This document shows positions 6,585 to 40,317 of a stretch of DNA of 64,000 nt, in pieces. Position 1 is the stretch's first letter; each line of letters begins with the position of its first letter. The stretch is from an uncultured Spirochaetota bacterium (GTDB lineage Bacteria > Spirochaetota > Spirochaetia > SZUA-6 > Fen-1364). The notes below the pieces were generated by a model. That model was not told the DNA's origin. It searched no databases and saw only the letters and a program-made list of their open reading frames with translations. The translations under genes were made by a program, and so were the position numbers. The stretch is taken from contig CAVTHO010000008.1 of NCBI GenBank assembly GCA_963734545.1, positions 480,001 to 544,000 on the forward strand. Reading direction: 5' to 3'.

Positions 6585-6606
6585 GAAATGCGCGGGGTAC
6601 CGCGCA
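6585..6606. repeat. Short GTAC-cored palindrome in the atpH-atpA spacer; degenerate member of the dispersed repeat family
   Basis: TGCGCGG-GGTA-CCGCGCA; GAAATGCGCGGGGTACCGCG resembles the reverse complement of the unit at 36404-36427. Confidence 0.5.
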
Positions 6607-6618
6607 GGGGGACAGCCT

Positions 6619-8119
6619 ATGCGCATCAATCTCGAAGAGATATCGACACGGATCAAGGAAGAGATCCGCAACTACTCCAAGAACCTGACCGTCGAGGATG
6701 TCGGGACCGTGGTGGAGCTCGGGGACGGCATTGCGCGCATCTACGGCATGCGCGGCGCCATGGCAATGGAGATGCTCGAATTCGAAACGGGCGTCTACGG
6801 GCTCGCGTTGAACCTGGAGGAGGACAGCGTCGGCGCCGTCATCCTCGGGAACTACCTCGACCTTCACGAGGGGGGCAAGGTCAGGAGAACAGGCAGGGTC
6901 CTGGAGGTGCCGGTCGGTCACGAGCTCGTGGGAAGGGTGGTCAATCCCCTGGGCATTCCCGTCGATGACAAGGGCGAGCTGAAAACGGTCCGGACCCGGC
7001 CGGTGGAGTTCAAGGCGCCCGGGCATCCGCGACCGCCAGCCGGTCAAGGAGCCGCTGCAGACGGGGGTGAAGGCCATTGACGCGATGGTGCCCATCGGCA
7101 GGGGACAGCGCGAGCTCCTGATCGGAGACCGGGGAACCGGCAAGGAATCCCTGGCCATGGACGCCATCATCAACCAGAAAGGCAGGGGCGTGATCTGCGT
7201 CTACGTTGCCGTGGGGCAGAAGGCCTCAATGGTGGCGGGTATCGTGGAAGCGCTGCGCGAGCGCGGCGCCATGGAGCACACCATCATCGTGGCGGCCACG
7301 GCCGCCGAGCCCGCCGCCCTGCAGTACATCGCCCCCTATGCGGGATGCGCGATGGCCGAGTACTTCATGTACGAGGAGCACAAGGACACGCTGTGCGTGT
7401 ACGACGATCTTTCGCGGCAGGCCAACGCCTACCGGCAGCTCTCCCTGCTCCTGCGCAGGCCGCCCGGACGCGAGGCCTACCCCGGCGACGTTTTCTATCT
7501 CCATTCGCGCCTGCTGGAGCGCGCCGCGCGGCTTTCCAATGAACAGGGAGGCGGCTCTCTCACGGCGCTCCCCCTGATCGAAACCCAGGAGGGAGAGGTC
7601 TCCGCGTACATCCCCACGAACGTGATCTCGATCACCGACGGCCAGATCTACCTGCGCACGGATCTGTACAACTCGGGGATACGGCCCGCCATCGACGTCG
7701 GCCTGTCCGTCTCCCGCGTGGGCGGCAACGCGCAGATCAAGGCGATGAAACAGGTCGCCGGGTCGCTGCGGATCGACCTGGCCGCCTATCGGGAGCTGGA
7801 GGCCTTCTCCCAGATGGGGACCGAGCTGGACAAGGCCACCCAGGCCCAACTCGCCCGCGGGGCGCGCATGGTGGAGGTGCTCAAGCAGCAGCAGTACAGC
7901 CCGATGCCGGTGGAAGAGCAGGTCATGATCCTCTATGCCGCCACCCGCGGCTACATGGACGACGTGCCCGTGATGCGCGTGCGCGAGTTCGAGACGAAGT
8001 TCCTCGCCTGGCTGCGCAGCGAGAAGCCGGAGATACTGGCGGGCATCAGGAACCTCGGGACGCTGTCGGAGCCCGAGGTGCTCACCGCGGCCATCGCGGC
8101 GTTCAAGAAGACGTTCTAG
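6619..8119 (+). CDS. atpA: F0F1 ATP synthase subunit alpha, one frameshift near 7021-7023
   Basis: [18 protein letters not shown]; an extra G in CCCGGGCATC breaks the frame; [36 protein letters not shown]. Confidence 0.96.
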
Positions 8120-8122
8120 GCC

Positions 8123-10764
<2,642 letters not shown>

Positions 10765-10803
10765 AGCCCCGGGTTATCATCAAACACGTGTTCGGTGATC
10801 AGG

Positions 10804-10824
10804 CGGAGGCTTTCAAAGCCTCCG
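10804..10824 (+). terminator. Hairpin after the atp operon (no U-tract)
   Basis: CGGAGGCTTT-C-AAAGCCTCCG inverted repeat. Confidence 0.4.
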
Positions 10825-10886
10825 GAAGCGGCCTCACGCTCCGCACAACGCCTTGTAAAAATTTTTCGCGCGCGTGCACGAAACTC

Positions 10887-10915
10887 TTGACAAGTACGCA
10901 CCGAAGCACTATGAT
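10887..10915 (+). promoter_or_regulatory. Near-consensus sigma70 promoter
   Basis: TTGACA-17 bp-TATGAT, 43 bp upstream of a GTG with SD GGGAGG. Confidence 0.8.
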
Positions 10916-10958
10916 CTTACACGATTTTAATTCTATGAGATGAGAGGGAGGGGTTACC

Positions 10959-11063
10959 GTGGCTGTAAAGAAGACAGCGAAGAAAGGCGCCAAGAAGAGC
11001 GCCAAGAAGTCGGCCAAGAAGCCGGCGAAGAAAGCCGCCAAGAAGACGGCTAAGAAGAGGTAG
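10959..11063 (+). CDS. 34-aa Lys/Ala-rich histone-H1-like microprotein
   Basis: MAVKKTAKKGAKKSAKKSAKKPAKKAAKKTAKKR*; synonymous codon variation among repeats; promoter, SD and terminator present; below the ORF-track size cutoff. Confidence 0.85.
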   Translation: MAVKKTAKKGAKKSAKKSAKKPAKKAAKKTAKKR

Positions 11064-11080
11064 GGGAGAGACAATCTCCC

Positions 11081-11128
11081 GCGCGGGGGAGGAGAACGGA
11101 CAATCTCTTCCCCCGCGTTCTTTTTTTT
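11081..11128 (+). terminator. Rho-independent terminator
   Basis: GCGCGGGGGAGGAGA...TCTCTTCCCCCGCGT stem followed by a run of 8 T. Confidence 0.85.
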
Positions 11129-11236
11129 CGCCCACAAGTATTCCCCCCAGGGGAGCGGGCGGTGATCCGCGACTTCAAGGTCTTAAAAACTGCACCGAAC
11201 GAGAGAGACGTATCACGCGCGAGCCTGCGCGATTTT

Positions 11237-12110
11237 TCACCTCCCGAGTATCTTCAGACATTCAAAGAGAACACGTTCCGCGCTGATTCCCTCCATGCCT
11301 GCGCGCGGCGACTCAATTGCGCGCACCGTGCGCCCCCGCGGCAGCCATACCCGCTGGTCGGTGGCGCCGAACAGAACGACAGTGGGACATCCGCACGCGG
11401 CGGCAAGATGAGTCACTCCGGAATCGTTGCCGATGTACAACCGGCAGCGCGAAAGAGATCCGGCAAGGGCGTGGAGATTCAGATCCCGCCAGGTATGCGC
11501 ATCTGACGGCAGGACGATTTCCGCCTCCGCAGGGCCCACGATCCATGCGACCTCCTCGCCCGCGGATTCCAGGGATCGCGCGACCTCCATGAAGCGTTCG
11601 AGTGCCCAGTTCTTCCGGGAGCTGCCGCTGCCGGGATGAATGGCAACCGCCGCCTCCGCGCGGGACTGCGCGGGGCCCGAGGTATCGACCCGCGGCACCC
11701 GCGCCTCGTCGGTGAATGCAAGCTCGGAAAACAGCGACAGATGATAGTCGACGATGGAGACCGGGACCGAAGGAAAGGGGTCCTGGCGCAGGATCGAGCG
11801 CACGCCGCATGACGCGAGCCGGTCCCTGAGGGGTGAGGAGTCCTGAGCGAACAGCGAGGGCGGAAGCAACACGCGAGAGGCGCTCCACGAGAGGGGCCGG
11901 CGTGCCGGTATCGGAAGAAAAGAGCGGCGCGCACAGGGCAGATTCGGCATCCAGGACCTCGTCGAACATGGGAGCGGCGAGCGCGGCGTGCGCCGGCTTG
12001 CCCAGCAGAAGTAGCCGCTCCCGGTCGTGCAGCCTGCGCCAGGCGGCCATCGCGGGCAGCGTCGTGATGAAATCCCCCAGTGCGCCTGCGTGGTAGACCA
12101 GGCTGGTCAT
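11237..12110 (-). CDS. Glycosyltransferase family 9 (heptosyltransferase-like), frameshift near 11860
   Basis: GALGDFITTLP N-terminus; IHPGSGSSRKNW; IGNDSGVTHLAAA...LFG. Confidence 0.88.
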
Positions 12111-12171
12111 TTTCGTACCGTAGCACAGGAGGCGCGTTTCTGGTAATAAAGAGCAAAGAGGTGATCTCCCC

Positions 12172-13425
12172 ATGCCTGCGGCAACCAACAAGAATGTCCT
12201 TGTCATCAACTGCGGCAGCTCGTCGCTGAAGTACGAGGTCTGGCAGATGCCCCAGCGCGTCAGCCTTGGCCGGGGCCTGGTCGAGCGGATCGGGGAGCTG
12301 AAGGGAAAGATCACCCAGAAGACGCCCAAGGGAGACATCATGCGGGAGGTGCAGGTCCCGCATCACAAGGCGGCCATGCAGATGGTGTGCGAGGCGCTCA
12401 CGGACCCGGCCCAGGGGGCGCTGGGCGGCCTCGATGAGATCAGCGGCGTCGGGCACCGGGTGGTGCACGGAGGCGAACAGTACGCCTCATCCACCGTCAT
12501 AGACGAGGACGTCGTGAAGGCGGTGGAGAAGAACGTCGAGCTGGCCCCCCTGCACAACCCGCCCAACCTCATCGGCATCCGCGAGGCCCAGGCCGTGCTC
12601 CCGCACGTGAAGCAGGTGGCCGTGTTCGACACGTCGTTCCACCAGACAATGCCCCCGGCAGCCTACCTGTACGGCCTGCCGTACGAGCTGTACGAGAAGT
12701 ACAGGATCCGCCGCTACGGCTTCCACGGCACCAGCCATCGCTACGTGGCCTCGCGCGCAATGGAGCTGCTCAAGCGCTTCCCTGAAAACACGAACGTCAT
12801 CACCTGCCACCTCGGCAACGGCGCATCGGTGACGGCCATCGAGCACGGGGTTTCCATCGACACGTCCATGGGTTTCACGCCCCTCGAGGGCCTGATGATG
12901 GGCACGCGCAGCGGCGACATCGATCCCGCCATCATCAGCTTTCTCGAACAGCGCGGGTACAGCTCCACCGAGGTCAATGCGCTGCTCAACAAGAAGAGCG
13001 GGCTCCTCGGCCTCTCGGGGATCTCCAATGACCTGCGCGACCTGGAATCAGAGGCGGCAAAGGGAAACCAGCGGGCCGTCCAGGCCCTGGAAGTGTACGC
13101 TTACCGGGTGCGCAAGTATGTCGGCGCGTACGTGGCAAATCTCGTGAAGGTCGACGCCCTTGTTTTTACCGGTGGCATCGGTCAGCACGGGGTCCGCATG
13201 CGGGAAAGGATCTGTCACCGTCTGGAGAACCTCGGCATCTTCATGGACTACGAGGCCAACACGGCACTGGGTTCGGGAGAAGGGGTCGTCTCCACGCCCT
13301 ACTCGCCCATCGCGATCCTGGTGATCCCGACGAACGAGGAGCTTCAGATCGCGATCGATACGTATAATCTCATCTTTGGCGCCGAGAAGGCATTCCGAAG
13401 GCGCCAGAGCGATGTGTCTCTTTGA
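12172..13425 (+). CDS. ackA: Acetate kinase
   Basis: VINCGSSSLK, GHRVVHGG, APLHN, YGFHGTSH, HLGNGAS, TNEEL. Confidence 0.97.
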   Translation: MPAATNKNVLVINCGSSSLKYEVWQMPQRVSLGRGLVERIGELKGKITQKTPKGDIMREVQVPHHKAAMQMVCEALTDPAQGALGGLDEISGVGHRVVHGGEQYASSTVIDEDVVKAVEKNVELAPLHNPPNLIGIREAQAVLPHVKQVAVFDTSFHQTMPPAAYLYGLPYELYEKYRIRRYGFHGTSHRYVASRAMELLKRFPENTNVITCHLGNGASVTAIEHGVSIDTSMGFTPLEGLMMGTRSGDIDPAIISFLEQRGYSSTEVNALLNKKSGLLGLSGISNDLRDLESEAAKGNQRAVQALEVYAYRVRKYVGAYVANLVKVDALVFTGGIGQHGVRMRERICHRLENLGIFMDYEANTALGSGEGVVSTPYSPIAILVIPTNEELQIAIDTYNLIFGAEKAFRRRQSDVSL

Positions 13426-13440
13426 ATGGGGGTTTCTTTC

Positions 13441-13824
13441 ATGGTAGAGCTGGATTTCACGAAGCTCGACGGGCTCGTCCCGGCGATAGCGCAGGATTGG
13501 CAGACGGGAGAGGTTCTCATGGTCGCCTTCATGAACAAGGAGTCCTGGGAGCTCACCCTGAAGACAGGGATCATGCACTACTGGAGCAGGTCCCGGAGCA
13601 AGCTCTGGAAGAAAGGCGAGAGCTCCGGCAACATCCAGGAGGTGAAGGAGCTGCGGATCGACTGTGACGAGGACTGCGTGCTGGCCAAGGTGCGCCAGAT
13701 CGGAGACGCCGCCTGCCACACCGGCTTCAGGAGCTGCTTCTACCGCGTGGTCGAGGGCGGGACGTTGCGCGTCGACGGCGTGCGGGTGTTCGACCCGGCC
13801 GATGTGTACGGAGAGAAGAAATGA
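13441..13824 (+). CDS. hisI: Phosphoribosyl-AMP cyclohydrolase
   Basis: [32 protein letters not shown]. Confidence 0.96.
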
Positions 13825-14717
13825 AGGATTACGTGATCAAGCTTGGCGTGCCCAAGGGAAGCCTCGAGCGCGCCACGATCGAGCTTTTCCAGAAGGCGGG
13901 ATGGAAGATATCGCTCTCCGAGCGCTCGTACTTCCCGTCCATCGACGATCCCGAGGTGAGCTGCAACCTCGTGCGCGCGCAGGAAATGGCGCGCTACGTG
14001 GAAAACGGCGTGCTCGACGCGGGCCTCACCGGCATGGACTGGATACTGGAAAACGAGGCGGACGTGGAGATCGTCACGGACCTCATCTACTCCAAGGCGA
14101 GCACGAGCAAGGCGCGGTGGGTGCTGGCCTGCCTGGCATCGTCTCCCATCGAGCGCCTGGAAGACTGCGCGGGAAAGACGATCTCCACGGAGCTGGTAGG
14201 GTTCACGAAGAGATACTTCGCCGAAAGAAACATCCCCGTGAAGGTCGAGTTCTCCTGGGGGGCCACCGAGGCGAAGGCGGTGGACGGCCTGGTGGACGCC
14301 ATCGTGGAGGTCACGGAGACGGGCAGCACGCTGCGCGCCAACGGTCTCAAGATCGTGCACACCCTGCTGGAGACCAACACCAAGCTCATCGCGAACAAGG
14401 CGGCGATGAAGGATCAGACGAAGAGGCGCAAGATCCAGCACATCGCCCTGCTCCTGCGCGGCGCGCTTGCCGCGGAGAACATGGTCGGCCTCAAGATGAA
14501 CGTGCCGGAGGCGAGCTTCGACGAGATCGTGAAGCTGCTCCCCAGCCTCACCTCGCCGACCGTGTCGCGGCTGCACAACGCCGCGTGGTTCTCCGTCGAG
14601 GTCATGATCCGGGAGTCTGTGGTCCGCGAGCTGGTCCCCCGGCTGATCGAAAAGGGAGCGGACGGCATCATCGAGTATCCCCTCAACAAGGTCGTCAACA
14701 GGAGTGACGCCCTGTGA
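13821..14717 (+). CDS. hisG: ATP phosphoribosyltransferase, long form
   Basis: [29 protein letters not shown]-terminal regulatory domain (PSLTSPTVS). Confidence 0.96.
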
Positions 14718-15508
14718 GGCAGTATCTCGAGCTGTGCCGCCACATCCTCGCGCACGGCGCGGACAAGCCCGACCGGACAGGGACGGGGACGCGCAGCGTC
14801 TTCGGATGGCAGATGCGGTTCGACCTCCAGGCGGGATTCCCGCTTCTCACGACGAAGAAGCTCAACACAAAGGCCATCATGCACGAGCTGCTCTGGTTCC
14901 TGCGCGGGGAGACGAACGTGCGCACCCTGCAGGAAGCCGGTGTCCATATCTGGGACGAATGGGCGGATGCGCAGGGCGAGCTGGGACCTGTCTACGGCCG
15001 TCAGTGGCGGTCATGGCCCACTCCGGACGGCGGCTCAATCGACCAGATCGCCCGGCTCGTGGAAAGACTGCGGGCCGAGCCGTGGTCACGGCGGCACATC
15101 GTGTGCGCATGGAACGTGGCAGACATCGACCGCATGGCCCTGGCGCCCTGTCACTGCCTGTTCCAGTTCTACGTGGCAGGGGACAGGCTCTCCTGCCAGC
15201 TCTATCAGCGCAGCGCGGACGTGTTCCTCGGTGTCCCCTTCAACATCGCCTCGTACAGCCTGCTCACGCACATGGTGGCCCAGGTGTGCGGGCTCCAGGC
15301 CCACGAGTTCGTGCATACCCTCGGGGACGCGCACATCTATACAAACCACATCTCCCAGATCGAGCTTCAATTGACCCGTGAGCCGAGGCCGCTTCCGCGT
15401 CTGAGCCTGCGCACGGGTGTGCCGAGCATTTTCGATTTTACGTTCGAGGATTTTTCCATACAGGGCTACGACCCCCACCCCGCCATCCGGGGCGCAATCT
15501 CCGTGTAG
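14714..15508 (+). CDS. thyA: Thymidylate synthase
   Basis: [34 protein letters not shown]. Confidence 0.98.
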
Positions 15509-15526
15509 TACGGGATCGGGTGCCGC

Positions 15527-16066
15527 ATGTCCGTGGCCCTCATCGCGGCCATAGCCGCCAATCGGGTGATCGGAGACAGGGGCGCCCTGCCGTGGCGCCT
15601 GCCGGACGACCTTGCGCGATTCCGCAGGCTCACAATGGGACACGCCGTAATCATGGGGCGCGCTACGTTCAACTCCATGGGCCGGCCGCTTTCCGGCAGG
15701 CGCAACATCGTGCTGACGCGCGACACCGCCCTGCGGATCCCCGGTTGCGATGTCACGCATTCACCCGGGGAGGCCCTGGCAGCCGCGGGAGACGGGGAGA
15801 AGTTCATCATTGGCGGCGCCGCGATCTACGCTCTTTTCCTGCCGCTGGCTGACCTGATGTACCTCACGCTGATCGATGCGGAGGTGCCGGGGGAGACGCT
15901 CTTTCCTGATGTGCGCTGGGAGGAGTGGCGCGTCCTCCGAGAGACTCCCGGGCGCGTCGACGCTGCATCGTCGTACTCGGCGGATTCTCGCTCGCCTCTG
16001 CCCCACAGGTTCGTGGACTATGAGCGCGCAACCTTGCTTCTGCCGCCAGGCGCCACTCCCCTCTGA
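15527..16066 (+). CDS. folA: Dihydrofolate reductase
   Basis: LPWRLPDD, IMGRAT, RPLSGRRNIVL, IIGGAAIY; follows thyA. Confidence 0.95.
   Translation: MSVALIAAIAANRVIGDRGALPWRLPDDLARFRRLTMGHAVIMGRATFNSMGRPLSGRRNIVLTRDTALRIPGCDVTHSPGEALAAAGDGEKFIIGGAAIYALFLPLADLMYLTLIDAEVPGETLFPDVRWEEWRVLRETPGRVDAASSYSADSRSPLPHRFVDYERATLLLPPGATPL
15965..15988 (+). repeat. Dispersed GTAC repeat copy inside folA
   Basis: GCATCGTCGTACTCGGCGGATTCT, 22/24 to unit GCATCGACGTACCCGGCGGATTCT; read as ASSYSADS. Confidence 0.75.
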
Positions 16067-16162
16067 GCCAGCTTCCGCAGGCTGCATCAGCCTCCTCAAC
16101 CTGCGCAGTGAGCCGCGGCCCGCCCACCGAATTTCACAGGGCCTGGGCCGGGCCCTTGCGTT

Positions 16163-16190
16163 TGTTCCAACCTTATTAATGGTTGGAACA
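16163..16190. promoter_or_regulatory. Perfect 10-bp inverted repeat, operator or terminator candidate
   Basis: TGTTCCAACC-TTATTAAT-GGTTGGAACA in the folA-luxR spacer. Confidence 0.45.
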
Positions 16191-30389: not shown

Positions 30390-30390
30390 A

Positions 30391-31032
30391 GTGGAAAGAA
30401 ACCCCGCATCTATTCGTGGTGTCCGCCGCTGGGCGGCGGACGCGGTGAGCCTCTCGCGGCTCGTGCTTCTCTTCCCGCTTGTATGGTGCGAGATCACCGC
30501 AAGCCCGTGGGCCCTTGCCGTTCTGGCCGTGATCGTCGTGAGCGACCTTATCGACGGCCCGATTGCTCGTCGGCTCGGCACGGCCGGCAGCAGGGGCGCG
30601 TTCATCGATGCCGCCTGCGACGTCGCAGTCGTGATGAGCGCCGCCATCGCGGTCGGAGCTTCCGATGCACGCTATGCCGGGCTTGCCGCCGTAATGGCTC
30701 TTGCGTTCCTGTCCTATGCCGGCTTCAGCCTGATCCTCCGCCGATTCGCTTACACGCGGCTGGGCAGATATGACGGTGCGGTGTGCTTCGGCGTCGTGGC
30801 CCTGGCCGGAGTGAAAGCACTGCTTGCGGCAATCGGTGTCAGCGTGCCCGCGGCCGCGGAATGGATCGTTCTCGGCCTTTCGGCCGCTTTCCTTGCGGTC
30901 TCTGCTGTTGAAAACATTTCGGGGATATGGACCGCAGGAAGAGCCGGCAAAGGACAGGTTCGCCCTGCTTCCTGGAGAGCATTCCCGAGCACCCTGTCTC
31001 CGCACAGCAACAATCAAAGGAGATCCGCATGA
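30391..31032 (+). CDS. CDP-alcohol phosphatidyltransferase family protein
   Basis: DLIDGPIARRLG...GAFIDAACD signature. Confidence 0.88.
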   Translation: MERNPASIRGVRRWAADAVSLSRLVLLFPLVWCEITASPWALAVLAVIVVSDLIDGPIARRLGTAGSRGAFIDAACDVAVVMSAAIAVGASDARYAGLAAVMALAFLSYAGFSLILRRFAYTRLGRYDGAVCFGVVALAGVKALLAAIGVSVPAAAEWIVLGLSAAFLAVSAVENISGIWTAGRAGKGQVRPASWRAFPSTLSPHSNNQRRSA

Positions 31033-31168
31033 GCCTCCCATTGCGTCCCGAGTCTCCGGGCTGCTCCCCGCCCGCCCTTGCCCGTTCGCATAGCGGGAAC
31101 AGGAGACTTTTCGGCCTGTCGCTTTCACTGCCTTCACTGCCCGGCAGCGTCGTGCTACAATCGACTCG

Positions 31169-31885
31169 ATGTCGGGAGAGACGATTCTTGTGGTAGAGGA
31201 CGAGGCCTCTGTCGCGCGCGGCCTCGAGTATGGCCTGAAGGCCGAGGGATTCAACGTCCTCGTGGCCGGCACCGGCGCGAAAGCGCTGGAGATCACCCGT
31301 GCCGGCAAAGACAAGCCCCCGCACCTTATGCTCCTGGACATCCGGCTCCCGGACATGAGCGGCTTCGACGTCTGCAAGACCCTGCGCGAGGAGGGGCGCG
31401 CCCTGCCCATCCTCATGGTGACGGCGCGGGATGAAGAAGTGGACAAGGTCCTCGGCCTGGAGCTGGGTGCCGACGACTACATCGTGAAGCCCTTCTCCCT
31501 GAGGGAAGTGCTCTCCCGCGTGCGCGCCGCGCTGCGCAGGGCGTACGGCGAGCTGGCATCAGCGGCGGCGGAGCGCGTGGTCTTCGGCGACGTAGTGGTG
31601 GACCTCCAGCGGATGCGGGTGGATCGCGCCGGCCAGAACGTGCTCCTTACGCCGACCGAGTATCGGCTTCTCCGCCACTTCGTGACCCATGCGGAGCAGG
31701 TGTTGACCCGTGACTCTCTCCTGGAGGTGGTCTGGGGCTACGACAACAGCGTTGATTCGCAGCGCACGGTGGACGTGCACGTGCGGCACCTTCGGGAGAA
31801 GCTGGAAGCAGACCCCGCCGCGCCCCGCTACCTCGTCACGGTCCGCGGCACCGGGTACGTGTTCACGACAAAGCCCCGGGAATGA
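31169..31885 (+). CDS. OmpR/PhoB-family response regulator
   Basis: LVVEDE, LLDIRLP, GADDYIVKPF, RTVDVHVRHLREKLE, VRGTGY. Confidence 0.96.
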   Translation: MSGETILVVEDEASVARGLEYGLKAEGFNVLVAGTGAKALEITRAGKDKPPHLMLLDIRLPDMSGFDVCKTLREEGRALPILMVTARDEEVDKVLGLELGADDYIVKPFSLREVLSRVRAALRRAYGELASAAAERVVFGDVVVDLQRMRVDRAGQNVLLTPTEYRLLRHFVTHAEQVLTRDSLLEVVWGYDNSVDSQRTVDVHVRHLREKLEADPAAPRYLVTVRGTGYVFTTKPRE

Positions 31886-31920
31886 GCGTAGACATGGACG
31901 TCGAGGCTGGCCGAGGCCCT

Positions 31921-31971
31921 TCCGCGGTACGGGAGTACCCGTTCGGCGGGTACGCCGTACCCCGCGGAGTT
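31921..31971. repeat. Intergenic GTAC-rich palindromic (REP-like) element
   Basis: Imperfect hairpin TCCGCGGTACGG-GA-GTACCCG-TTCGG-CGGGTAC-G-CCGTAC-C-CCGCGGA; 31927-31971 is 42/45 identical to the reverse complement of 39474-39518. Confidence 0.85.
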
Positions 31972-31998
31972 GGAAGGCCGGGAGGCCAGCCATACGTG

Positions 31999-32034
31999 TT
32001 AACGAATCTTAATCGCGCCGTAAATAGACGCTAA
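31999..32034 (+). promoter_or_regulatory. Phased nTAA direct repeats, candidate OmpR-family binding site
   Basis: TTAA 31999, TTAA 32009, GTAA 32020, CTAA 32031 in an AT-rich patch upstream of the PDZ gene. Confidence 0.45.
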
Positions 32035-32073
32035 TGATGAGGACGTAGCTTTGTACCCGGAGGTACAAGCAGC

Positions 32074-33204
32074 ATGAGACTTCAATACATTCTCGTCGGT
32101 GTCCTTTCTCTTGCGGTCGGCACGACTCTGGGGTTTGCCCAGCCGAAGGCGGAGAAGGCAGCCGGCACGACCGAGGCGGCGAATCCGAACACCCAGTCGC
32201 CCGTGGACGAGCCGGGTGTCCTCGTCGTGGCAGTCCAGAGCGACAGTCCCGCGCAGAAGGCAGGAATCGTCCGGGGCGACATCATCCTTGCCGTGAACGG
32301 GACCGCCGTGAACACGCCTGCCGAGCTCATAAAGGGCGTCGAGGCGCGCAAGAGCGGTGACACCCTGTCGGTGAAGCTGCGCCACGGCGACGCGGAGAAG
32401 ACCATGAACGTCACGCTTGCCGAGCGGAACGGGCGTGCATGGCTGGGCACGGCGTTGTTCCCGGGCAGCCGAGAGCGGGGGCGCGAGCTCGGTGATGACC
32501 GGGACCTCGGATTTCAGATGCCGTTCTCGGGCGCATACGTGACGAGCGTCGTTACGGGAAGCCCCGCGGAAAAGGCGGGCCTGAAGGAGGGCGACGTGAT
32601 CCTGTCCGTGGACGGCACGAACGTCGATCCCCGGCACAGCCTGTCCGACCTGATCAGCGCAAAGAAGATCGGGGACACGGTCACCCTCTCCGTCGAATCT
32701 TCGGCGCAGGGCCGGGAACAGCCGCCCCGGGACGTGAAAGTCACCCTGGAAAAGAACCCGTCCGGCAGCATGCCTTACGCGGGAATCCAGTATACGGCAG
32801 CTCAGCCCCGGTTCGGGCGCGGGCCGCGCGGAGGCGCCTTTGCAGGGCCGGGCGTGCTTGTTGCGGATGTCGTTGCGGACGGTCCTGCATCCAAGGCAGG
32901 CATCAAGGCCCGTGACGTCATCACGAAAGTACAGGGCGTTGCGGTGACAGACCCGAAGGAGGTCGCCGATGCGGTGGCCGCGCACAAGCCCGGGGACACA
33001 TTGAGCGTGACGGTCCGACACGAAGCGGATGACAAGGAAGCGGATATGAGCGTGACGCTCGGGGCGAACCCGAACGACGCGGCAAAGGCGTACATGGGGA
33101 TCTCGATGAGCGCTTTCATGGGACAGCCAGGGCCGGGCCCGAGGGGATTCGGCGGCATGCCTCGTCGCATGAGCCCTCCTGGCAACACGCCTCCGGGAAT
33201 CTAG
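32074..33204 (+). CDS. Exported protein with three PDZ domains and no protease domain
   Basis: Signal peptide; three GVLV..V..DSPA.KAG...GD.I..V.G-type repeats. Confidence 0.9.
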   Translation: MRLQYILVGVLSLAVGTTLGFAQPKAEKAAGTTEAANPNTQSPVDEPGVLVVAVQSDSPAQKAGIVRGDIILAVNGTAVNTPAELIKGVEARKSGDTLSVKLRHGDAEKTMNVTLAERNGRAWLGTALFPGSRERGRELGDDRDLGFQMPFSGAYVTSVVTGSPAEKAGLKEGDVILSVDGTNVDPRHSLSDLISAKKIGDTVTLSVESSAQGREQPPRDVKVTLEKNPSGSMPYAGIQYTAAQPRFGRGPRGGAFAGPGVLVADVVADGPASKAGIKARDVITKVQGVAVTDPKEVADAVAAHKPGDTLSVTVRHEADDKEADMSVTLGANPNDAAKAYMGISMSAFMGQPGPGPRGFGGMPRRMSPPGNTPPGI

Positions 33205-33208
33205 AATC

Positions 33209-33278
33209 GCGCATGCCAGGCATGCGCTGAGAGCACGGGATACGCGGGTACGCGTTCCGCGCGGACGCGGTACCGTGC
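33209..33278. repeat. Two intergenic palindromes, the second GTAC-containing
   Basis: GCGCATGCC-A-GGCATGCGC, then GCACGG...GGTACGCGTTCCGCGCGGACGCGGTACCGTGC. Confidence 0.55.
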
Positions 33279-33284
33279 AGCAAA

Positions 33285-34898
33285 TTGGGGGGAGAATTGT
33301 TCCAGTCGATCCGGTGGAAGCTTGCGGCCAGCTACGCAGTTCTTGTCCTGCTCTCGGTAACGCTGATGGGCGCGCTGGCGCTGTACATCGTGCAGCGTGA
33401 CGTGGGCAGGCAGGAAGCGGGGTACCTGAAGGCGAACGCGCGCGCTGTTGCCGAGCAGGCCCGGCGCTTCATGGACCCGCACGTCCGCCGGATCGCGCTC
33501 GCGGAGCTGGCCTCCACCTCCGCATTTCTGGGAGACGCGCGCGTCAGGATCATGGGACCCGACCGCGCGCTCCTTGCTGATTCCGGCAGTCCCGGCCTGC
33601 CGGACGAGTTTCTCTGGCTCATCCCCTCGGGCCTTGCGGAGATCGACGCCGGGCGCGAGGGCTCGTTCCCCTTCATTCTCCCCATGCCGCCGCACCCGCA
33701 CGGCGGGCAGATAATGAGCCCGCGCGAGCTGATGCCCCTGCTCCGCGATCTTCCCCTGGGCACGTCGCACGTCTATGCGCGGCGCATGCTCACCCCGTGG
33801 GGAAGGCGGTTCGTGTTCGAGGGCGATCCGATCGTGCCGGAGGGACCGCGCGCTTCGACTGCGCCTCCCCGGCAGGTGGTCGCCACCACTGTGGCCATCG
33901 GGTCCGAGGGCAGTCCCCTGGGTTACGTCGAAATGTCGAGCCCGCTCAGCCTGAGCGGTGTCGCGCTGGGTCCGATGAGGAGCGCCGTGCTCCTCTCCGG
34001 CCTCGGCTCCCTGGCCATCGCCGTCTGTGTCGGCCTGCTCATCGGGAGGACGCTGTCCGATCCGCTGCGCAGCCTTGCGGGCACGGCGCGCAGGATGGCG
34101 GAAGGAGACCTCTCCTCACGGGCAGAAGCCGGGCGGCGGGACGAGATCGGAGAGCTGGCGCGGCAGTTCAACGGGATGGCGGAAAGTCTCGAGGCGAGCT
34201 TCCGGGACCTGCGTTCCGAGCGTGATTCATTGAAGAGATTCGTCGCCGACGCTTCGCACGAGCTGCGCACGCCCATCACGGCCCTCGCGACATTCAACGA
34301 GCTCCTGCAGGGAAGCGCGTCGGAGGATCCGGCCGCGCGACAGGAGTTTCTCAGGGAAAGCCAGACGCAGCTCGAGCGCCTGCAATGGATCACTTCCAAT
34401 CTCCTGGACCTCTCCCGCCTGGACGCGGGGATCGCGGCGCTGACCCTGGGCAATCACGCTGCCCGGGACATCGTCGAATCGGCACTGGCGGGGGCGAGGG
34501 AAAAGGCGCGGGCGAAGAACATCTCCCTTTCCGTCGAAGCGCGCGACACGGCCCTTGTCGTCTCCTGTGACAGGAACAGGGTGGAAATGGCCCTCTCCAA
34601 TCTCGTTGTCAATGCCGTGAAGTTCACACAGCAGAACGGGCACGTGGCGGTCAGCGTGGCCGCGGAAAACGGCTGCGTCCAGTTCGCGGTGCGGGACGAC
34701 GGCCCGGGGATTTCCGCCGAAGAACTGCCGTTGATATTCGGACGGTTCTATCGCGGCAGGAACGCCGCGGGAGAGGGCGCGGGTCTCGGCCTTGCGATCG
34801 TCCAGAGCGTCGCCCGGGCCCACGGGGGATCGGTGGAGGCACAAAGCGTTCCCGGCGCCGGGAGCGTTTTCACTTTGGTGATCCCGCTCGTCGCGTAG
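33285..34898 (+). CDS. Sensor histidine kinase (HAMP, HisKA, HATPase)
   Basis: DASHELRTP, NLVVNAVKF, DDGPG, GAGLGLAIV. Confidence 0.95.
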   Translation: MGGELFQSIRWKLAASYAVLVLLSVTLMGALALYIVQRDVGRQEAGYLKANARAVAEQARRFMDPHVRRIALAELASTSAFLGDARVRIMGPDRALLADSGSPGLPDEFLWLIPSGLAEIDAGREGSFPFILPMPPHPHGGQIMSPRELMPLLRDLPLGTSHVYARRMLTPWGRRFVFEGDPIVPEGPRASTAPPRQVVATTVAIGSEGSPLGYVEMSSPLSLSGVALGPMRSAVLLSGLGSLAIAVCVGLLIGRTLSDPLRSLAGTARRMAEGDLSSRAEAGRRDEIGELARQFNGMAESLEASFRDLRSERDSLKRFVADASHELRTPITALATFNELLQGSASEDPAARQEFLRESQTQLERLQWITSNLLDLSRLDAGIAALTLGNHAARDIVESALAGAREKARAKNISLSVEARDTALVVSCDRNRVEMALSNLVVNAVKFTQQNGHVAVSVAAENGCVQFAVRDDGPGISAEELPLIFGRFYRGRNAAGEGAGLGLAIVQSVARAHGGSVEAQSVPGAGSVFTLVIPLVA

Positions 34899-34962
34899 AC
34901 GCGTGCAATAATCACATCGCTTGACTCGTCGTGTTGAACGAAACCAACCGGGGGAGGTATCC

Positions 34963-35586
34963 ATGAGAAGAACCGTCTTTTTGGTGATAATCTCCGCTGC
35001 GCTCGCCGCGGCCGCGTACGCACAGGAGAAAGCGCCCGATCGCTTCGGATTCGAGCAGGAGCTGAGCGCGGCTCTTCAGGACATGTCGGGGACCCAGGTG
35101 GGGACGCTGACCGTCGGGGACCTCGAGAAGCTTGCGGGACGCGTCTCCATCGTGGTGCAGAAGATTCAATACGTGCAGAAGGTGAAACGCGCGTCGTTCT
35201 TCCTTCCCGGCGCCGGGCAGTTTATGACAGGGGACGCGCTGGGAGGCTCACTCTTCCTTGCAGGGGACCTTGCCATCGTCACCGGCACCCTGATCGGCGC
35301 GTATTTCCTGCTTCCCACGAACGTGCAATTCAGGGATCTGGACTACTTCCACGTGCCCCTGGGATCGATCAGGAGGGCATGGGAGAGCAACAGCTTCACG
35401 GACTACCTGCCCTCCATCGCCGTGCTCGCCGGCGGGATGGTCCTCAAGGCCGTCCTGGGACACTTCTCCGCGGCCAACGCGGAAAGCGAGGCGCGCGCAC
35501 GCATCGCGGAAGGGAAAATCACCTTCACGCCGAACTTCGACGTGTTCGGCCGTGGATTCGGCATGGGCGTGCGGATGGGGTTCTAG
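34963..35586 (+). CDS. Hypothetical exported/membrane protein
   Basis: SD GGAGG, signal peptide, SFFLPGAGQF motif. Confidence 0.7.
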   Translation: MRRTVFLVIISAALAAAAYAQEKAPDRFGFEQELSAALQDMSGTQVGTLTVGDLEKLAGRVSIVVQKIQYVQKVKRASFFLPGAGQFMTGDALGGSLFLAGDLAIVTGTLIGAYFLLPTNVQFRDLDYFHVPLGSIRRAWESNSFTDYLPSIAVLAGGMVLKAVLGHFSAANAESEARARIAEGKITFTPNFDVFGRGFGMGVRMGF

Positions 35587-35627
35587 ACCCGCGCGCGGTA
35601 TGCGCGTGCGCGCCTCAGTGGGTGCTC

Positions 35628-38600
35628 CTACACACGCGCGCGGTAGGTAAGGCGGCGGTAGTCCTCGACGAACCCGAATTCGACGAGCCTCTCCCTGTAG
35701 GGGCTCTTCCCGACCGGCTCGTCGTTGATGGTTTCCACCCGGACCGCGCTCATGGGCCGCCATTCACGTCCAGTCAGTACCTTGACGAAGGAAAGATACT
35801 CCGGGATGCGAGGCGACTCGGGAGGCACTCTGAACTCGAGCTCCCGGCCCTTGCGGCGCGACACGAGAACCACCGCGTCCCCGTGGAACACCACGTGAGT
35901 AGTGGGCAGACGTGACGGCAGCACCGGCTTCAGGGCCTCGATATCCACGCCGCAGAGGCTCGCAGGGTCCGCCGCGTTCACCCACCATACGGGGCCGGCG
36001 GATTCTGCATCGCCGTGCCCGGCGGATTCTGCATCGCCCCATTCCTCGATCAGCGAAGGGGCAGCAAACTGCAGACCCCTGATCCCCTCGAAAAACCTGC
36101 CTGCCACCACCTCTCCGGAGAACTCCATCAGCCGAAGGCTGCGGAACAGCCGTGACCAGCGAAGAAGAGGCAGCTCGTTTTCCAGCACCTCGCGAAACAG
36201 CACGCCGTAGCGCTGGAGGACCTGCCTGATCCTGTCACGTACGATCTCCTCCTCGTCCAGCGCGTCGCGCTCCCCGTTCCCCCGCTGCACGCGAAACCAG
36301 AAGCCCGTGCTCGGCCGTGTGGCCTGCCAGCGGTCGAAGCCGGGCCGTCCACGGCCTGCCGCGCGGCTGCGCGGAATCCGCATCGCAGTACTCTGCGGAT
36401 TTTGCATCGCGGTACCCCGCGGATTCAGCGGAGAACCGCGGCCCGGGTCGCTCGGCGGCACCTCGCCGGCACGAAAACCGCTGTCCACCCCTTTCCGCAA
36501 TTCCTGGAACGAATCGCTAGGAGACCATGCCTTTCCACGCGAGATCCCACAGGCGATCGGTCAGCTCCGCCGAACTCAGCCGCAGCTTGTCCCCGAGGTC
36601 CCAGAAAGAGTACTTGCCCGCACTGGATTCGAAGAGAGCCTCCGCGGGGGTCTCGTCGGGAGCTGCCTCGAGAAAGAGCTCCGCGTCCTCACGGAAACAG
36701 AATGTAAGGCGCTGCCTGCCGCATCCGAGCCAGAGAAGCCCTGCCTCCGCGAGCAGTCCATCCAGCCACCGTGTCCGGTACTCCTGCAACCGGGCGGGGA
36801 AAACCTCCTCCTCCCACGCGCGGGCCGGAAGCGGAAGCCCGAAGAGCTTTTCCCACTTACCCTTCATCTCGTCAGGCCCGCCGGCACGCTCGATCAGCCC
36901 CTGGCGCCTGGCAACGAAGAGAGGCAGGCGCGCGACAGGAAGAGTTTTCACCTCGGGCCGGGCCCTGGCCCGGGAAATCCGCAGGAGGATCTCGAGATTC
37001 TCTCGGTCGCAGAGCAGCAGGGCCTCCGAGCCTGCGGCGAGCCTGTCCAGCACGACCTGCTCTTCTTCCGCGAGCTCCTGGATGAGAGACTCCAGCCTGT
37101 CCTGGGTCAACCCGAACAGGCGTCCCACGAACGAAGGCTCGATCGGGCCGTAGAATCGCAGCCACTCGCTCAACAATTCCGCCAGGGCATCGACGTACTC
37201 GGCGGATTTCGCATCGACGTACCCGGCGGATTCTGCATCGACGTACCCGGCGGATTCTGCATCGACGTACCCGGCGGATTTCGCATCGACGTACCCGGCG
37301 GATTTTGCACCGTCCGCCGCAGCCTGGAGGCTTCGTTCGACCCGGGGGAGCGTCTCCCGGGCCAGGACACAGGAAAGCTCACCGAACGAGCGCGTGACGA
37401 TCTTCGGCCGGAGCTCCTCTTCGAGGGCTTCTGGAGACAACCCGTAGTCGCGCGCACACGCCTGCAGGAGCGCCTGCCACTCCGTCTGGGGAAGAATGAT
37501 CCTCTCCTTGACCCAGTCCAGAAGCTCGCGCGCATCGCGCGGAGCGTATCCCGCTCCGGTGCGCTGCAGCTTGGCCTGAAAGTCCGCCAGAACGCCCGCG
37601 GCAAGCCGCGGACGCAGATCGGGGGAAAGGGCAAGCTCCCTGACGAGCTCGCCGCGCAGACTCGTTCCCCCTGCTCCCGGCGGCGTATCGTCCGCATACA
37701 TCAGGCTGTTCGTCTGTTTCCACAACAGCCCGTGGCAGAACGGAGAAGGCACGGCGGTGGACACCTCGCCGATCGCGATGACGCCGGAAGAGAGCTCTTC
37801 CAGCAGCATGCCCAGGTGGGGAAGGTCGAACTCGTCCCGCAGGCAGGTCCGCCACGCCTCGAGGAGCAGGGGAAAATCGTCGTAGCGCGACACCGCGGAG
37901 AACAGGGACTTTGCTCTCTGACGCGTGAGCCAGAAAGGCATGCGCCTTTTTGCCGAAGGCCGCGGGAGAAGCAGGGCGCGGCCCGCGCTTTCGCGAAACC
38001 GGGCGCCGAAGAAGCCGCTGCCTTCCAGGCTCCTGCGCAGCAGCCTCTCCAGGCTGCCCGCCGGGACGAGGGACAGGATCTCCTGCGCGGAGCGGGCCTC
38101 CGGCAGAAAGAGCAGGATCGCATCGTTGTTCTGGAACATCTCGGGGCGATAGCCGTACTTTTCCTCCCACGCGGCGGAGAGAGCGAGGCCGAAGGGCTTG
38201 TTGACCCTTCCGCCCCACAGGGTGTGCAGCACGACATACGCTGCGCCGACGTGCCCGGCGGATTTCGCCTCCGCCTTGCCGTCGGGATCACGCGTATGCT
38301 CGACGAGCAGGTGATGGCGATGGGGAAGGTCCGCGCCGGTCGCCTCTCTCTGCCGGGCAAGGAACTCGGTCATCGCGCGCGCCGCATCGGGCTCCAGGCC
38401 ATGGGAGGCTTCCTGCGCCGCGGGGAAGTCACGATCCCCGATTTTCCCGTTCCAGTCTTCCAGCGTGCGCGCGATCCGGTCGGAAATATGGAAATCCCTG
38501 TTGCGCTCTTCCGCTTTCCAGAAGGGGGACATGCCGATCCTGGTTGCCACGGGCACGACCTCGACGTTCTGGTGATCGATCTTCTGGATGCGCCAGCCCT

Positions 38601-40317
38601 GCGTGCCGAACACGAAGCTGTCACCCAGGGAGCGCTCCCAGACGAACTCCTCGTCCAGCTCGCCGATGAGCGGTCTTGGAATCCGCGGCGCGCAGGCTGA
38701 AGTAGCCCCTGTCGGGAATGGTGCCGCCGCTGGTGGCCAGGCGGATCCGCGCACCCTCCCTGGCGCGCACGGTGGAATCGATGCGATCGTAGGAAATCAT
38801 CGGCGCGAGATCGCGCAGCCGCGTTTCCTCGTACTTGCCGGCGAGCATGTCCAGCACCAGATCGAATTGCCGGCGGGCGAGCGTGCGGTAGGGAAAGCCG
38901 GCGCGAATGAAGTCGTACAGCTCGTCCACCTTCCAGGTTTCCACCGCGGTCATGGAGACGATCACCTGGGCCAGGACATCCAGCGGGCAGGTCACCGGAG
39001 TGATCGTGTCGATGTCCTGCTCCCGGACGCAGCGCGCCGTGACCGCCGCGTCCACGATGTCCTTGCCGTGCAGGGGAAAGATGACGCCCCTGCTGGGCTG
39101 GCCCACCGTGTGGCCGGCGCGGCCGAGACGCTGGACAGCGGAAGCCACGTTGAAGGGCGTCTGCACGAGAATGACCTGATCGAGGGAGCCCACGTCGATG
39201 CCCAGCTCCAGGGAGCTGGTGGCCACGATGGCTTTCAGCTCGCCGCGCTTCAGCCTCTGCTCAACGACAAGGCGGAGCTCCCGTGAGAGCGAGCCGTGGT
39301 GAGACCAGGCGAGCGTCTGCGGCTGACCCTCGTTGATGAACCGGGCCAGCTTCTCCGCGTGGCGGCGCGAGTTGACGAAAAAGAGGGTGGACCGATTCTC
39401 CGCGATGATCTTCCTGCACTCCCGGGCCAGCGCATCGAACAGGGGCTCTTCGCCCGGCGCGCTGGTCGGCGCCAAATCCGCCGGGTACGGCGTACTCGCC
39501 GAACGGGTACTCCCGTACGTCGGCGCAGAATCCGCCGGGTACGTCGGCGCAACGGCCGGATACGAGATGCGGATGTCATAGTCCTTTGCCATCGGGCAAT
39601 GGACGACCTGTACGCGCCTCTTGCGATAGACCGGCTCCCCCGCCGCGCGCTCCAGTTGGTACCCGCCCACAAGATCAGCCACGACGGACAGCGGTTTTAC
39701 TGTTGCCGACAGGGCGATTCTCTGGAACTCCCCCGCCAGCCTCACCAGCCTGTCCACCGCGGTCACGAGGTGCGTGCCCCGCTTCGTGGCCGCGACGGCG
39801 TGGATCTCGTCGAGGATCACGGCGGCAACCCCGTCCAGCATCAGGCGGCCGTTCGGCGACGAGAGGATCAGGTTGAGGCTCTCCGGGGTGGTGATGAGGA
39901 TCTCGGGGGGATGGCGCAGCATCCTCTGGCGCTCGGTGGACGAGGTGTCGCCGCTCCGGGTGAGAACACGTATCGACGGCAGCGAATGGCCCGCCTGCTG
40001 GAAGACCGTGGAAAGCTCCTGCAGCGGCGAGAGCAGGTTGCGCTGGATGTCGTTGTTCAGCGCCTTCAGGGGCGAGACGTACAGGATCCGGACCTTCCCG
40101 GGAGACAGGGCACCGGTTGCCAGCTGGTTGATGCCCCAGAGGAATGCGGTGAACGTCTTGCCGGTGCCGTGGGGGCCGACACCAGAACATGCGCGCCCCG
40201 CGCGATCTCGGGCCACGCACGCTCCTGTACTTCGGTCGGCCTGCCGACGGACGTGAGAAACCATGACCTGATCAGGGGGTGGAAGAGGGAAAGGGCGCCC
40301 TCGGTCTCGTCGTTCAT
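35628..40317 (-). CDS. lhr: Lhr-family ATP-dependent helicase (long form), three frameshifts near 40168, 38671, 36518
   Basis: FHPLIRSWF, APTGTGKT (reconstructed), SPLKALNND, DEIH, HHGSLS, ATSSLELGIDVG, QRLGRAGH, GTIPDRG, C-terminal GRFFEGIRGLQFA and AADPASL. Confidence 0.92.
35995..36038 (+). repeat. GTAC-family repeat (about 2 units) inside lhr
   Basis: CCGGCGGATTCT-GCATCGCCGTGCCCGGCGGATTCT-GCATCGCC; read as GDAESAGHGDAESAG. Confidence 0.8.
36380..36427 (+). repeat. GTAC-family repeat (2 degenerate units) inside lhr
   Basis: GCATCGCAGTACTCTGCGGATTTT + GCATCGCGGTACCCCGCGGATTCA. Confidence 0.7.
37187..37306 (+). repeat. Tandem array of 5 x 24 bp inside lhr
   Basis: GCATCGACGTACYCGGCGGATTYY x5; read on the lhr strand as repeats of DA(E/K)SAGYV. 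Confidence 0.95.
38243..38266 (+). repeat. GTAC-family repeat, single unit inside lhr
   Basis: GCGCCGACGTGCCCGGCGGATTTC; read as KSAGHVGA. Confidence 0.7.
39474..39550 (-). repeat. GTAC-family composite element, opposite orientation, inside lhr
   Basis: AAATCCGCCGGGTACGGCGTACTCGCCGAACGGGTACTCCCGTAC...AGAATCCGCCGGGTACGTCGGCGC; read as APTYPADSAPTYGSTRSASTPYPAD. Confidence 0.88.

Follow-up and report, generated by a model that had tools for sequence, protein, structure and literature searches.

An essentially genus-restricted family of 24-nucleotide hairpin repeats, probably selfish or neutral, inside and between the genes of uncultured wetland spirochaetes

A short DNA sequence of about 24 nucleotides (nt) with GTAC at its core recurs inside unrelated protein-coding genes, and between genes, in a 64,000-nt stretch of the genome of an uncultured Spirochaetota bacterium (GenBank assembly GCA_963734545.1, contig CAVTHO010000008.1, positions 480,001 to 544,000; the whole stretch is referred to here as the window). 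This raises the question of what kind of element it is, and of how so small a sequence reaches the sites at which it is found. The source genome (G000, in which the window is G000:C8:480001-544000) is a metagenome-assembled genome (MAG) of 5.14 Mb in 10 contigs, with 63% G+C and 89% completeness, and it was compared with related genomes, which are kin and hence non-independent. The element is probably a member of a genus-restricted family of ultra-short, hairpin-forming dispersed DNA repeats that behave as selfish or neutral mini-insertions, and not a peptide motif.

The repeat unit and its distribution

When up to three mismatches were allowed, the unit GCATCGACGTACCCGGCGGATTYT was matched eight times in the window, at 15965, 36007, 37187-37306 (five tandem copies) and 39527 (minus strand), against 0.00 matches in 100 shuffles, and the dispersed GTAC-cored family proposed in the initial annotation is therefore real. 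Tandem Repeats Finder reported 24-nt arrays at 36380-36425, 37187-37309 and 39516-39564. In the whole genome 97 matches were found at five or fewer mismatches, and a profile made from these gave 267 nhmmer hits at 165 loci; at a score of 12 or more there are 231 units at 140 loci (77 intragenic, 55 intergenic and 8 overlapping a gene end), which bears out the expected genome-wide enrichment. Gene calls come from our own codon-usage caller, which gave 4818 genes and 88.4% coding sequence, so the share of intragenic loci is an approximation. Loci are about threefold enriched in intergenic DNA, the non-coding part being ~12% of the genome, but still more than half of them lie in genes. They are spread over all 10 contigs, with single units at 89 of the 140 and six copies in the largest arrays, and they are clustered, with 21 gaps below 2 kb where 8.1 are expected (a value reached in 0 of 1000 randomisations).

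The basic unit, termed unit A, is 23-27 nt long and consists of a 6-bp G+C stem, a TAYY loop holding GTAC, an ATT tail and a short linker; the stem is flanked by GC(G/A)(C/T) on its 5' side and by ATT on its 3' side. Arrays end in a partial unit (N plus about 0.4 copies), and each array has its own variant of linker and loop. The tetranucleotide GTAC itself is not over-represented, its genome-wide ratio of observed to expected being 0.92. In correction of the unit length of 24 nt given initially, the copy in atpC, the gene for ATP synthase epsilon, has 25 nt and shifts the frame in this assembly.

What is conserved is the DNA rather than the peptide, as had been suggested, and this is indicated by the use of six frames, by covariation in the stem and by the intergenic copies. 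Intragenic units are read mostly in frames F0 (28 units, ASTYPADS-like), F1 (22, AAVPGGFG-like), R1 (17, NPPGTS-like) and R2 (31, ESAGYVDA-like), which give small, polar or Gly/Pro-rich peptides of a linker-like kind, and rarely in the two arginine-rich frames F2 (5) and R0 (9). The different readings noted initially within the window were also recovered: ATYPADSA in atpC, ASSYSADS in folA and, within lhr (large helicase-related) alone, KSAGYVDA/ESAGYVDA, NPRGTAMQNPQSTAM and PTYPADSAP. Among 144 distinct units from G000 and other genomes, a 6-bp stem with a 4-nt loop has 91.5% of its cells paired, compared with 83.6% for shuffles, none of 500 of which was as high, and stem pair 8/15 is CG in 69 units, GC in 66 and unpaired in 8. 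CGG-type units, together with the composites described below, fold well (z -3.1 to -5.0); the CGG type is mostly extragenic (45 units inside and 80 outside genes), unlike the other types (67 and 39; Fisher 4e-5).

A one-unit pattern was searched in 81 genomes of the order. Unit A was matched 174 times in G028, 132 in G000, 90 in G002, 52 in G024, 47 in G022, 41 in G001, 31 in G009, 27 in G010, 26 in G011, 15 in G023 and 7 in G027; seven further genomes of the genus have 0-1 matches each, the 63 genomes of other genera have one match in total, and the reversed pattern, used as a control, has 0 matches in every one of the 81. Unit A is essentially restricted to one genus of uncultured wetland spirochaetes. 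A two-unit pattern searched in one genome per species found at least 96 stretches, and 77 of the 80 listed are titled as Spirochaetia, Spirochaetota or Spirochaetaceae MAGs; the same pattern had no match in viral contigs. Rfam covariance models gave no match at gathering score over the whole window. The suggestion that the family might be undescribed stands in so far as the one literature search aimed at it found no paper on it, but short palindromic repeats inside open reading frames (ORFs) have been described in other phyla, according to excerpts of PMC3733652.

Insertion, turnover and nesting

Comparison with empty sites showed that the units are insertions relative to their orthologues in folA, lhr, a kinase gene, a gene for a PBP-like enzyme and atpC. 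One reference was G002, whose contig C6 is collinear with G000:C8:419-529 kb at ~85% identity; G028 is nearer (87-90%). In folA exactly 24 nt are absent from G002, the unit being present in G000 only, and the same holds for the 24-nt unit in the kinase gene. The PBP-like gene carries a unit in both G000 and G002, whereas its G028 counterpart is shorter by exactly 24 nt. Target duplication around unit A was visible at neither folA nor the PBP-like gene. In lhr the repeat places differ in various ways: five units at 37187-37306 correspond to one in G002; the 48 nt at 36380-36427 are absent from G002, which has a reverse-oriented partial unit at the site; 39466-39556 holds a 78-nt insert relative to G002 that is flanked by a 9-nt direct repeat; at 35995-36038 there are two full units in G002; and the unit at 38243-38266 is mostly absent there. 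One array of three units is present in G002 and absent from G000, and one small gene is followed by arrays after its stop codon in all three species, in which the unit variant and the period differ.

The atpC site, which lies at a beta-hairpin turn of the epsilon subunit, is filled in five genomes (G000 with one forward unit, G002 with two, G010 and G024 with reverse units, and G001 with a decayed one) and empty in eight (G011, G003, G006, G007, G028, G023, G022 and G009). Because the five are filled in two orientations and eight are empty, several gains or losses are indicated at this turn. The G028 orthologue as extracted (G028:C18:316689-317056) translates out of frame from its start, owing either to a coordinate offset or to an assembly indel. 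As a separate observation, G000 and G002 cease to be collinear immediately past the folA repeat (window 15954 onward, G002:C6:68772); the interruption spans 15 kb in G000 and 8.4 kb in G002, and collinearity resumes at window 31148.

A new finding here is that unit A hosts further hairpin modules, B and C, in its GTAC loop. Module B is 26 nt long, consists of two small GTAC-loop hairpins joined by GAAC, and often lies in the loop of unit A, where it is found in both orientations (at least six forward and at least five reverse); it also occurs in other outer hairpins and forms tandems with a period of 30 nt. Module C, also 26 nt and likewise made up of two small GTAC-loop hairpins, can sit in the second loop of B; the modules are found in the loops of A and in those of one another. 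The 33 regex matches to B or C in G000 have GTAC (27) or GGAC (5) on the left flank and GTAC (16), GTAT (8) or GCAC (8) on the right; 32 of the 33 were scored as having G(T/G)AC at both ends. Two clean filled/empty pairs were found in the region 31900-31967 of the window. At 31922-31967 G002 has a plain hairpin, to which G000 adds module B and a second GTAC, 30 nt in all, and 25 bases upstream a 60-nt composite of B and C follows CATGGAC in G002, the site being empty in G000. No terminal inverted repeats were found in A, B or C.

The species distributions of the two kinds of repeat differ. Matches to A and B number 0 and 13 in G021, 1 and 10 in G012, 1 and 9 in G006, and 0 and 6 in G008, and the reverse is seen in G011 (26 and 0), G001 (41 and 0) and G023 (15 and 0); both are abundant in G002, which has 33 B matches alongside its 90 A matches. 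As these distributions are uncoupled, A and B are therefore regarded as separate families with a common architecture and a preference for GTAC loops.

Intragenic copies and the features of the window

Neighbouring units inside genes are spaced by a multiple of three in 41 of 43 instances; outside genes this holds for 22 of 48 (Fisher 1.6e-7), and array periods of 23, 25 and 26 occur commonly there. The host proteins are unrelated (ATP synthase epsilon, dihydrofolate reductase (DHFR), Lhr, the kinase and the PBP-like enzyme). The idea that the repeats add loops or tails to proteins agrees with both the position of the intragenic loci, 23 of the 77 lying in the last tenth of the gene, and the predicted structure of the folA product. 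The 8-residue insert of this DHFR is missing from 46 of 46 aligned homologues, some of them 85-90% identical, so that the peptide is not shared with orthologues, just as the atpC site is empty in several genomes. The AlphaFold model of the protein has a mean pLDDT of 89.4, and its sole internal stretch below 50 (residues 148-151) falls within the insert, in the loop that joins strand 134-141 to strand 160-167; the insert is thus predicted to be a disordered loop.

The repeat places and their host genes are collected in Table 1. Three intergenic places had been described initially, at 6585, 31921 and 33233, as relatives of the unit; they are indeed related GTAC-loop hairpins, but not plain units.

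Table 1. Repeat places in the window and the genes that carry them (positions in the window; fold values are for DNA)
Feature	Position	Strand	Remarks
Simple 7-bp GTAC-loop hairpin	6589..6604		10 nt beyond the ATP synthase delta stop codon (upstream ORF has an OSCP domain); family relative, not the 24-nt unit; fold -10.3 kcal/mol, z -4.9
atpC (ATP synthase epsilon), interrupted by a unit	10473..10943	+	Pfam, tblastn, DNA reading
Single unit A, 25 nt, at the epsilon beta-hairpin turn	10635..10659	+	Orthologue comparison
Single unit A, 24 nt, in frame in folA	15965..15988	+	Reads ASSYSADS; pattern match, orthologue comparison
A-like hairpin, CCGCGG stems, intergenic	31922..31967	+	Loop with module B (31931-31956, reverse) and duplicated GTAC; fold z -5.0
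Outer hairpin CACGG/CCGTG, intergenic	33234..33277	+	Surrounds a B-like two-hairpin module; fold -19.5 kcal/mol, z -3.9
lhr (large helicase-related), six repeat places	35628..40375	-	Three open frames in this assembly; Pfam
Partial, full and partial unit in lhr	35995..36038	+	Gene strand reads GDAESAGHGDAESAGP; full unit at 36007
Two CGG-type units in lhr	36380..36427	+	Read NPRGTAMQNPQSTAM; fold z -3.9
Five tandem units in lhr	37187..37306	+	Read (K/E)SAGYVDA x5
One degenerate unit in lhr	38243..38266	+	Reads KSAGHVGA
Composite in lhr: unit A, then unit A with module B in its loop	39466..39556	-	Reads PTYPADSAPTYGSTRSASTPYPADLAP; fold z -3.1

Two of the host genes are broken in the assembly. 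In atpC there is a +1 difference between the frame used upstream of 10632 and that used from 10660 on, the Pfam match covers only profile positions 3-51 of 80, and tblastn aligns two pieces in frames +2 and +3. In lhr there are four frame pieces in G000, with single-base indels relative to G002 at 40169 (a C run one shorter), 38671 and 36518, none of them inside a unit; the G002 orthologue is one intact frame of 1573 residues. The lhr breaks are due either to long-read assembly error or to a decaying gene. Because lhr has these three single-base indels outside units, the atpC frameshift is not to be trusted, and its reading as biology (bypassing or recoding) was rejected as unsupported, there being in addition a second epsilon gene on C1. 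Read-level evidence came from Logan contigs of related wetland populations; no run contains half of the words, and no RNA data set was listed. In two wetland runs the atpC unit is present with three more letters, and these contigs end inside the unit, at 10658/10659; in one run the empty atpC allele is seen as a loose end.

Several neighbouring features were recorded. Just downstream of atpC, at window 10968-11058, lies a tandem repeat with a period of 12/24/36 (AAGAAGACGGCC-like, ~7.6 copies) that would encode a Lys/Ala-rich stretch. The two epsilon genes (G000:C1:85463-85669 and window 10488-10637) apparently belong to two ATP synthase operons, of which the window copy has the repeat. Another dispersed hairpin family, unrelated to unit A, has the form CACCGCCC-NNN-GGGCGGT followed by ATCC(A/G)CGCG(C/T)GGG, and occurs at G000:C4:678803, C4:678877, C5:585094, C6:260918 and C7:675321. 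The tetranucleotide CTAG is strongly avoided genome-wide (813 observed and 3874 expected, ratio 0.21).

How the repeats may spread, and their place among known systems

If the repeats are selfish or neutral mini-insertions, as appears probable, a new site would be seeded rarely and by a discrete quantum, which would be one unit for A and, for B or C, 26 nt and a further 4 nt inserted behind G(T/G)AC. Head-to-tail arrays would then grow or shrink locally by replication slippage and be homogenised within the array, occasional copies would be lost precisely, and selection would keep those intragenic copies whose total length is a multiple of three, whose frame is not arginine-rich and which lie in a loop or a tail. 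We infer slippage, seeding and selection as the processes at work. Copy number varies at orthologous sites as in a minisatellite (VNTR), a tandem array confined to one or a few loci, but slippage alone does not account for the single units at 89 of the 140 loci, dispersed over 10 contigs. The leading guess for seeding, held tentatively, is a trans-acting enzyme that would recognise single-stranded hairpins (Y1-HUH-like). It is conceivable, though we would not bet on it, that A, B and C represent a new class of 24-30-nt mobile hairpin modules, which would enter each other's single-stranded GTAC loops with a 4-nt G(T/G)AC duplication, as well as Gly-Gly-type seeds in genes, would excise precisely, and would be moved by a non-RAYT enzyme that is not encoded adjacent to them.

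A number of observations weigh against an explanation by selfish hairpin insertions. The covariation of the stem comes essentially from one pair, and two subfamilies may account for it. ACG-type units, the commonest intragenic variant, have an A.G mismatch at the next stem pair in 51 of the 144 distinct units, and they fold at -3.2 kcal/mol with z -0.6, no better than shuffled sequence, so hairpin formation is not maintained in every copy. In 12 of the 65 intergenic cases the array starts a single base past a TAG stop codon (TAG makes up 30.5% of stops), an adjacency that hints at a function or a target rule which a selfish model does not predict. Orientation is balanced, with 70 units on the plus and 70 on the minus strand, and is unrelated to GC skew or gene-strand bias; this counts against transposition through lagging-strand single-stranded DNA (ssDNA), which would predict a bias. 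Finally, no mobilising gene was found for the family.

The enzyme would, as one sub-hypothesis of the selfish explanation has it, be a Y1-HUH transposase of the IS200/IS605 or RAYT type that moves non-autonomous elements in trans, binding hairpins in ssDNA, inserting 3' of a tetranucleotide and excising precisely. We regard this as possible but rather doubtful. The modules B and C follow a logic resembling that of the resident IS200-like elements, which have TTAG on the left and TTAG at their end and form direct tandem copies: B and C have G(T/G)AC on the left, end in GTAC, GTAT or GCAC, and form 30-nt tandems. A hairpin loop is, moreover, the single-stranded part of an extruded hairpin, and both the clean unit A insertions without obvious duplication and the exact 24-nt loss in G028 are as such an enzyme would leave them. 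The right-end hairpin of the insertion sequence (IS) in G000 has a GGCGG stem arm and then GGATT(C/T), a short resemblance to unit A. Of the 11 genomes with at least seven A matches, 9 have Y1_Tnp, as do 2 of the 7 with 0-1, a comparison that is confounded by kinship.

The repeats do not, however, lie beside the Y1 genes, and they occur in genomes without them. G000 has one Y1_Tnp (PF01797) gene, at C4:159630-159989, which is IS200-like and is flanked by hairpins of its own (8-11 bp) that occur nowhere else in the genome. In the genus Y1_Tnp occurs in 12 of 21 genomes, often in multiple copies, as is typical of IS-like genes and not of single-copy RAYT-like ones, and neither unit A nor module B lies within 1.5 kb of 12 Y1_Tnp loci of the genus (35.7 kb in total). 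Repeats are present without Y1 in G002 (96% complete) and G010 for A, and in G021, G012 and G006 for B; Y1_Tnp was also not found in G002, G012 and G006 in the survey of the genus. The orientation is unbiased, as given above, and the GT[AG]G guide tag is absent. The link to RAYT was therefore rejected, and with it the initial comparison to REP elements as a matter of membership: GTAG tag and RAYT are both lacking, the sole Y1 gene of G000 is IS200-like with unrelated hairpins, and the repeat-rich G002 has no Y1. The proposed search for an HUH or RAYT gene flanked by the repeat was likewise negative at the 12 Y1 loci, and the statement that the window holds no mobilising enzyme was upheld among 11 window ORFs scanned against Pfam.

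Two observations were made in the course of this search. Two subfamilies of IS200-like elements occur in the genus, both preceded by and ending in TTAG (including G000:C4:158130-161489), with direct tandems in G028:C31 and G009:C12. An inverted pair of units at C5:738064/739408 was considered as a candidate IS and rejected, as it belongs to a larger inverted duplication that contains transporter genes and lies close to the end of the contig; this duplication (G000:C5:736000-741500) comprises ABC-transporter permease and sugar-kinase genes, the second copies of which are broken, and looks like a fold-back assembly artefact.

The repeats might also spread without a dedicated enzyme, by ectopic template switching or gene conversion at short shared seeds (for example CGGCGGA, encoding Gly-Gly), with the arrays as slippage minisatellites; we would likewise put this below an even chance, and well below it. 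The partial unit at array ends, the copy numbers that differ between species at the same site, and the array-specific variants of linker and loop, which indicate local duplication, are all as expected from such a process, as are the clustering of loci and the repeated use of the atpC Gly-Gly turn in both orientations. Matches of at least 8 nt to the unit were seen at four of seven inspected empty or neighbouring sites, where the background for an 8-mer within 6 nt is 9.5%, but this seed count is small and post hoc, 7-mers are found at 25% by chance, some of the seeds are probably remnants of older units, and folA has no seed. Template switching also fails to explain why B and C are regularly bracketed by G(T/G)AC and why they are inserted into loops in both orientations.

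It is less likely still that the repeats are functional cis-elements, either RNA or DNA hairpins placed after stop codons for termination or mRNA stability, or sites for binding of a GTAC protein or for methylation, with the intragenic copies as by-products. The 12 intergenic arrays placed one base past a TAG point in this direction; post-stop arrays are found at the same small gene in three species despite the difference in variant, the well-folding CGG type is mostly extragenic, and REPs near stop codons are reported to affect translation (work cited in an excerpt of PMC6006769). The presence of sites differs between sister species, though, whole species of the genus are without the family, no Rfam model matches in the window, there is no terminator-like T-run, and the intergenic copies show no 3'-end preference, lying by our own tally in 17 convergent, 13 divergent and 25 tandem contexts. 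As an insertion target TAG was rejected, no single rule fitting the data: arrays after TAG, TAA and TGA were all seen by eye, only 4 of 96 array heads in other genomes are at a fixed TAG offset, and one array was inserted behind a pre-existing TAG while another brings a TAA and replaces 10 codons. The adjacency may stem from a rule of target choice, from selection for an effect on termination, or from the filtering of insertions close to gene ends.

A repeat maintained at the protein level (for example as a YPADS or GGFG motif under functional selection), with the DNA similarity as a by-product of recent duplication, is very improbable: intragenic arrays stay in frame and the four common frames give linker-type peptides, but six frames are used, 55 of 140 loci are intergenic, the host proteins are unrelated, the inserts are missing from orthologues and that of folA is predicted to be disordered. 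An artefact of the long-read MAG (adapter or chimera), which the single-base indels of the assembly (three in lhr outside units), the inverted duplication near the end of contig C5 and the frame break in atpC might suggest, is already contradicted for the family as a whole, and most improbable, by diverged variants with compensatory changes, present in 11 or more genomes of this genus and in many independently deposited MAG records, by the atpC unit in Logan contigs of two wetland runs and by orthologous copies that have diverged between species; it is left only for the extra base in atpC.

Among known systems the repeats stand closest to REP and BIME elements. According to excerpts of PMC3733652 and PMC6006769, REPs are 20-40 nt long with a G+C stem, a short loop and a 3-nt unpaired tail, as is similar in unit A; they form subfamilies with complementary stem changes and G-T pairs, and they are present in tens to hundreds of species-specific copies, some of them in ORFs that include DNA repair genes. 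CGTC REPs, in the excerpted text of PMC3733652, enter ORFs and have no dedicated transposase. REPs are marked by a conserved tetranucleotide, GT[AG]G or CGTC, that lies at 0-2 nt from the hairpin foot (excerpts of PMC6006769 and PMC3733652), and unit A has neither a GTAG or GTGG nor a CGTC tag at its foot; TAG precedes only 12 of 65 intergenic and 0 of 79 intragenic array heads. Its stem is 6 bp, compared with 8-9 bp for CGTC and 5-13 bp for GTAG REPs, and head-to-tail arrays dominate here, whereas head-to-tail dimers are negligible for REPs (both as given in the excerpts of PMC3733652). Here 77 of the 140 loci are intragenic and no RAYT is flanked by the repeat, whereas REP/REPIN elements are mostly extragenic, with inverted doublets as the replicative unit. 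The family is a variant of the REP kind and not a member, as tag, RAYT and extragenic inverted doublets are all absent. The supplements of PMC3733652, as described in its excerpted text, list intragenic REPs and a spirochaete CGTC family, which may bear on this comparison.

Rickettsia palindromic elements (RPEs) share with our repeats their in-frame presence in unrelated housekeeping genes, where they are tolerated as protein additions, but in the excerpt of PMC10969869 an RPE is ~150 bp long and encodes a conserved peptide, as against 24 nt, six frames, tandem arrays and frequent occurrence between genes in the present family. With IS200/IS605 elements they would share the recognition of a small hairpin instead of terminal inverted repeats, and they share a tetranucleotide that recurs at the far end, precise loss and tandems; they differ in being gene-free, in not flanking Y1 genes, in their presence in Y1-less genomes and in their lack of strand bias. 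The cyanobacterial SDRs (of Nostoc and other cyanobacteria; Elhai et al. 2008) reportedly have units of 21-27 nt, a patchy distribution among relatives, site polymorphism, nesting and no known transposase. They are unrelated in sequence and phylum. MITEs are also short, non-coding and dispersed, with presence/absence polymorphism, and the 4-nt repeats that bracket B and C resemble a target duplication; our repeats, however, lack terminal inverted repeats, are 24-30 nt long compared with >100 nt for MITEs (excerpt of PMC10969869), and no parent IS with matching ends was found.

How 24 nt can spread is a long-standing puzzle posed by short palindromic repeats without a transposase, such as CGTC REPs, RPEs and cyanobacterial SDRs. 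This genus offers clean material for it, with a 24-nt quantum, an atpC Gly-Gly hot spot that is used in both orientations, exact losses, nested filled and empty alleles, and species that have only A or only B; the uncoupled distributions allow comparative tests of mechanism, for example through genes that co-vary with A or with B. In long-read MAGs the repeats also give rise to errors of annotation and to apparent frameshifts. If they are selfish, as seems probable, selfish DNA supplies loop and tail insertions to core enzymes such as DHFR, ATP synthase epsilon and Lhr. Should A, B and C prove to be mobile hairpin modules, they would be the smallest system of nested transposition so far described and would provide a natural means of inserting loops into proteins.

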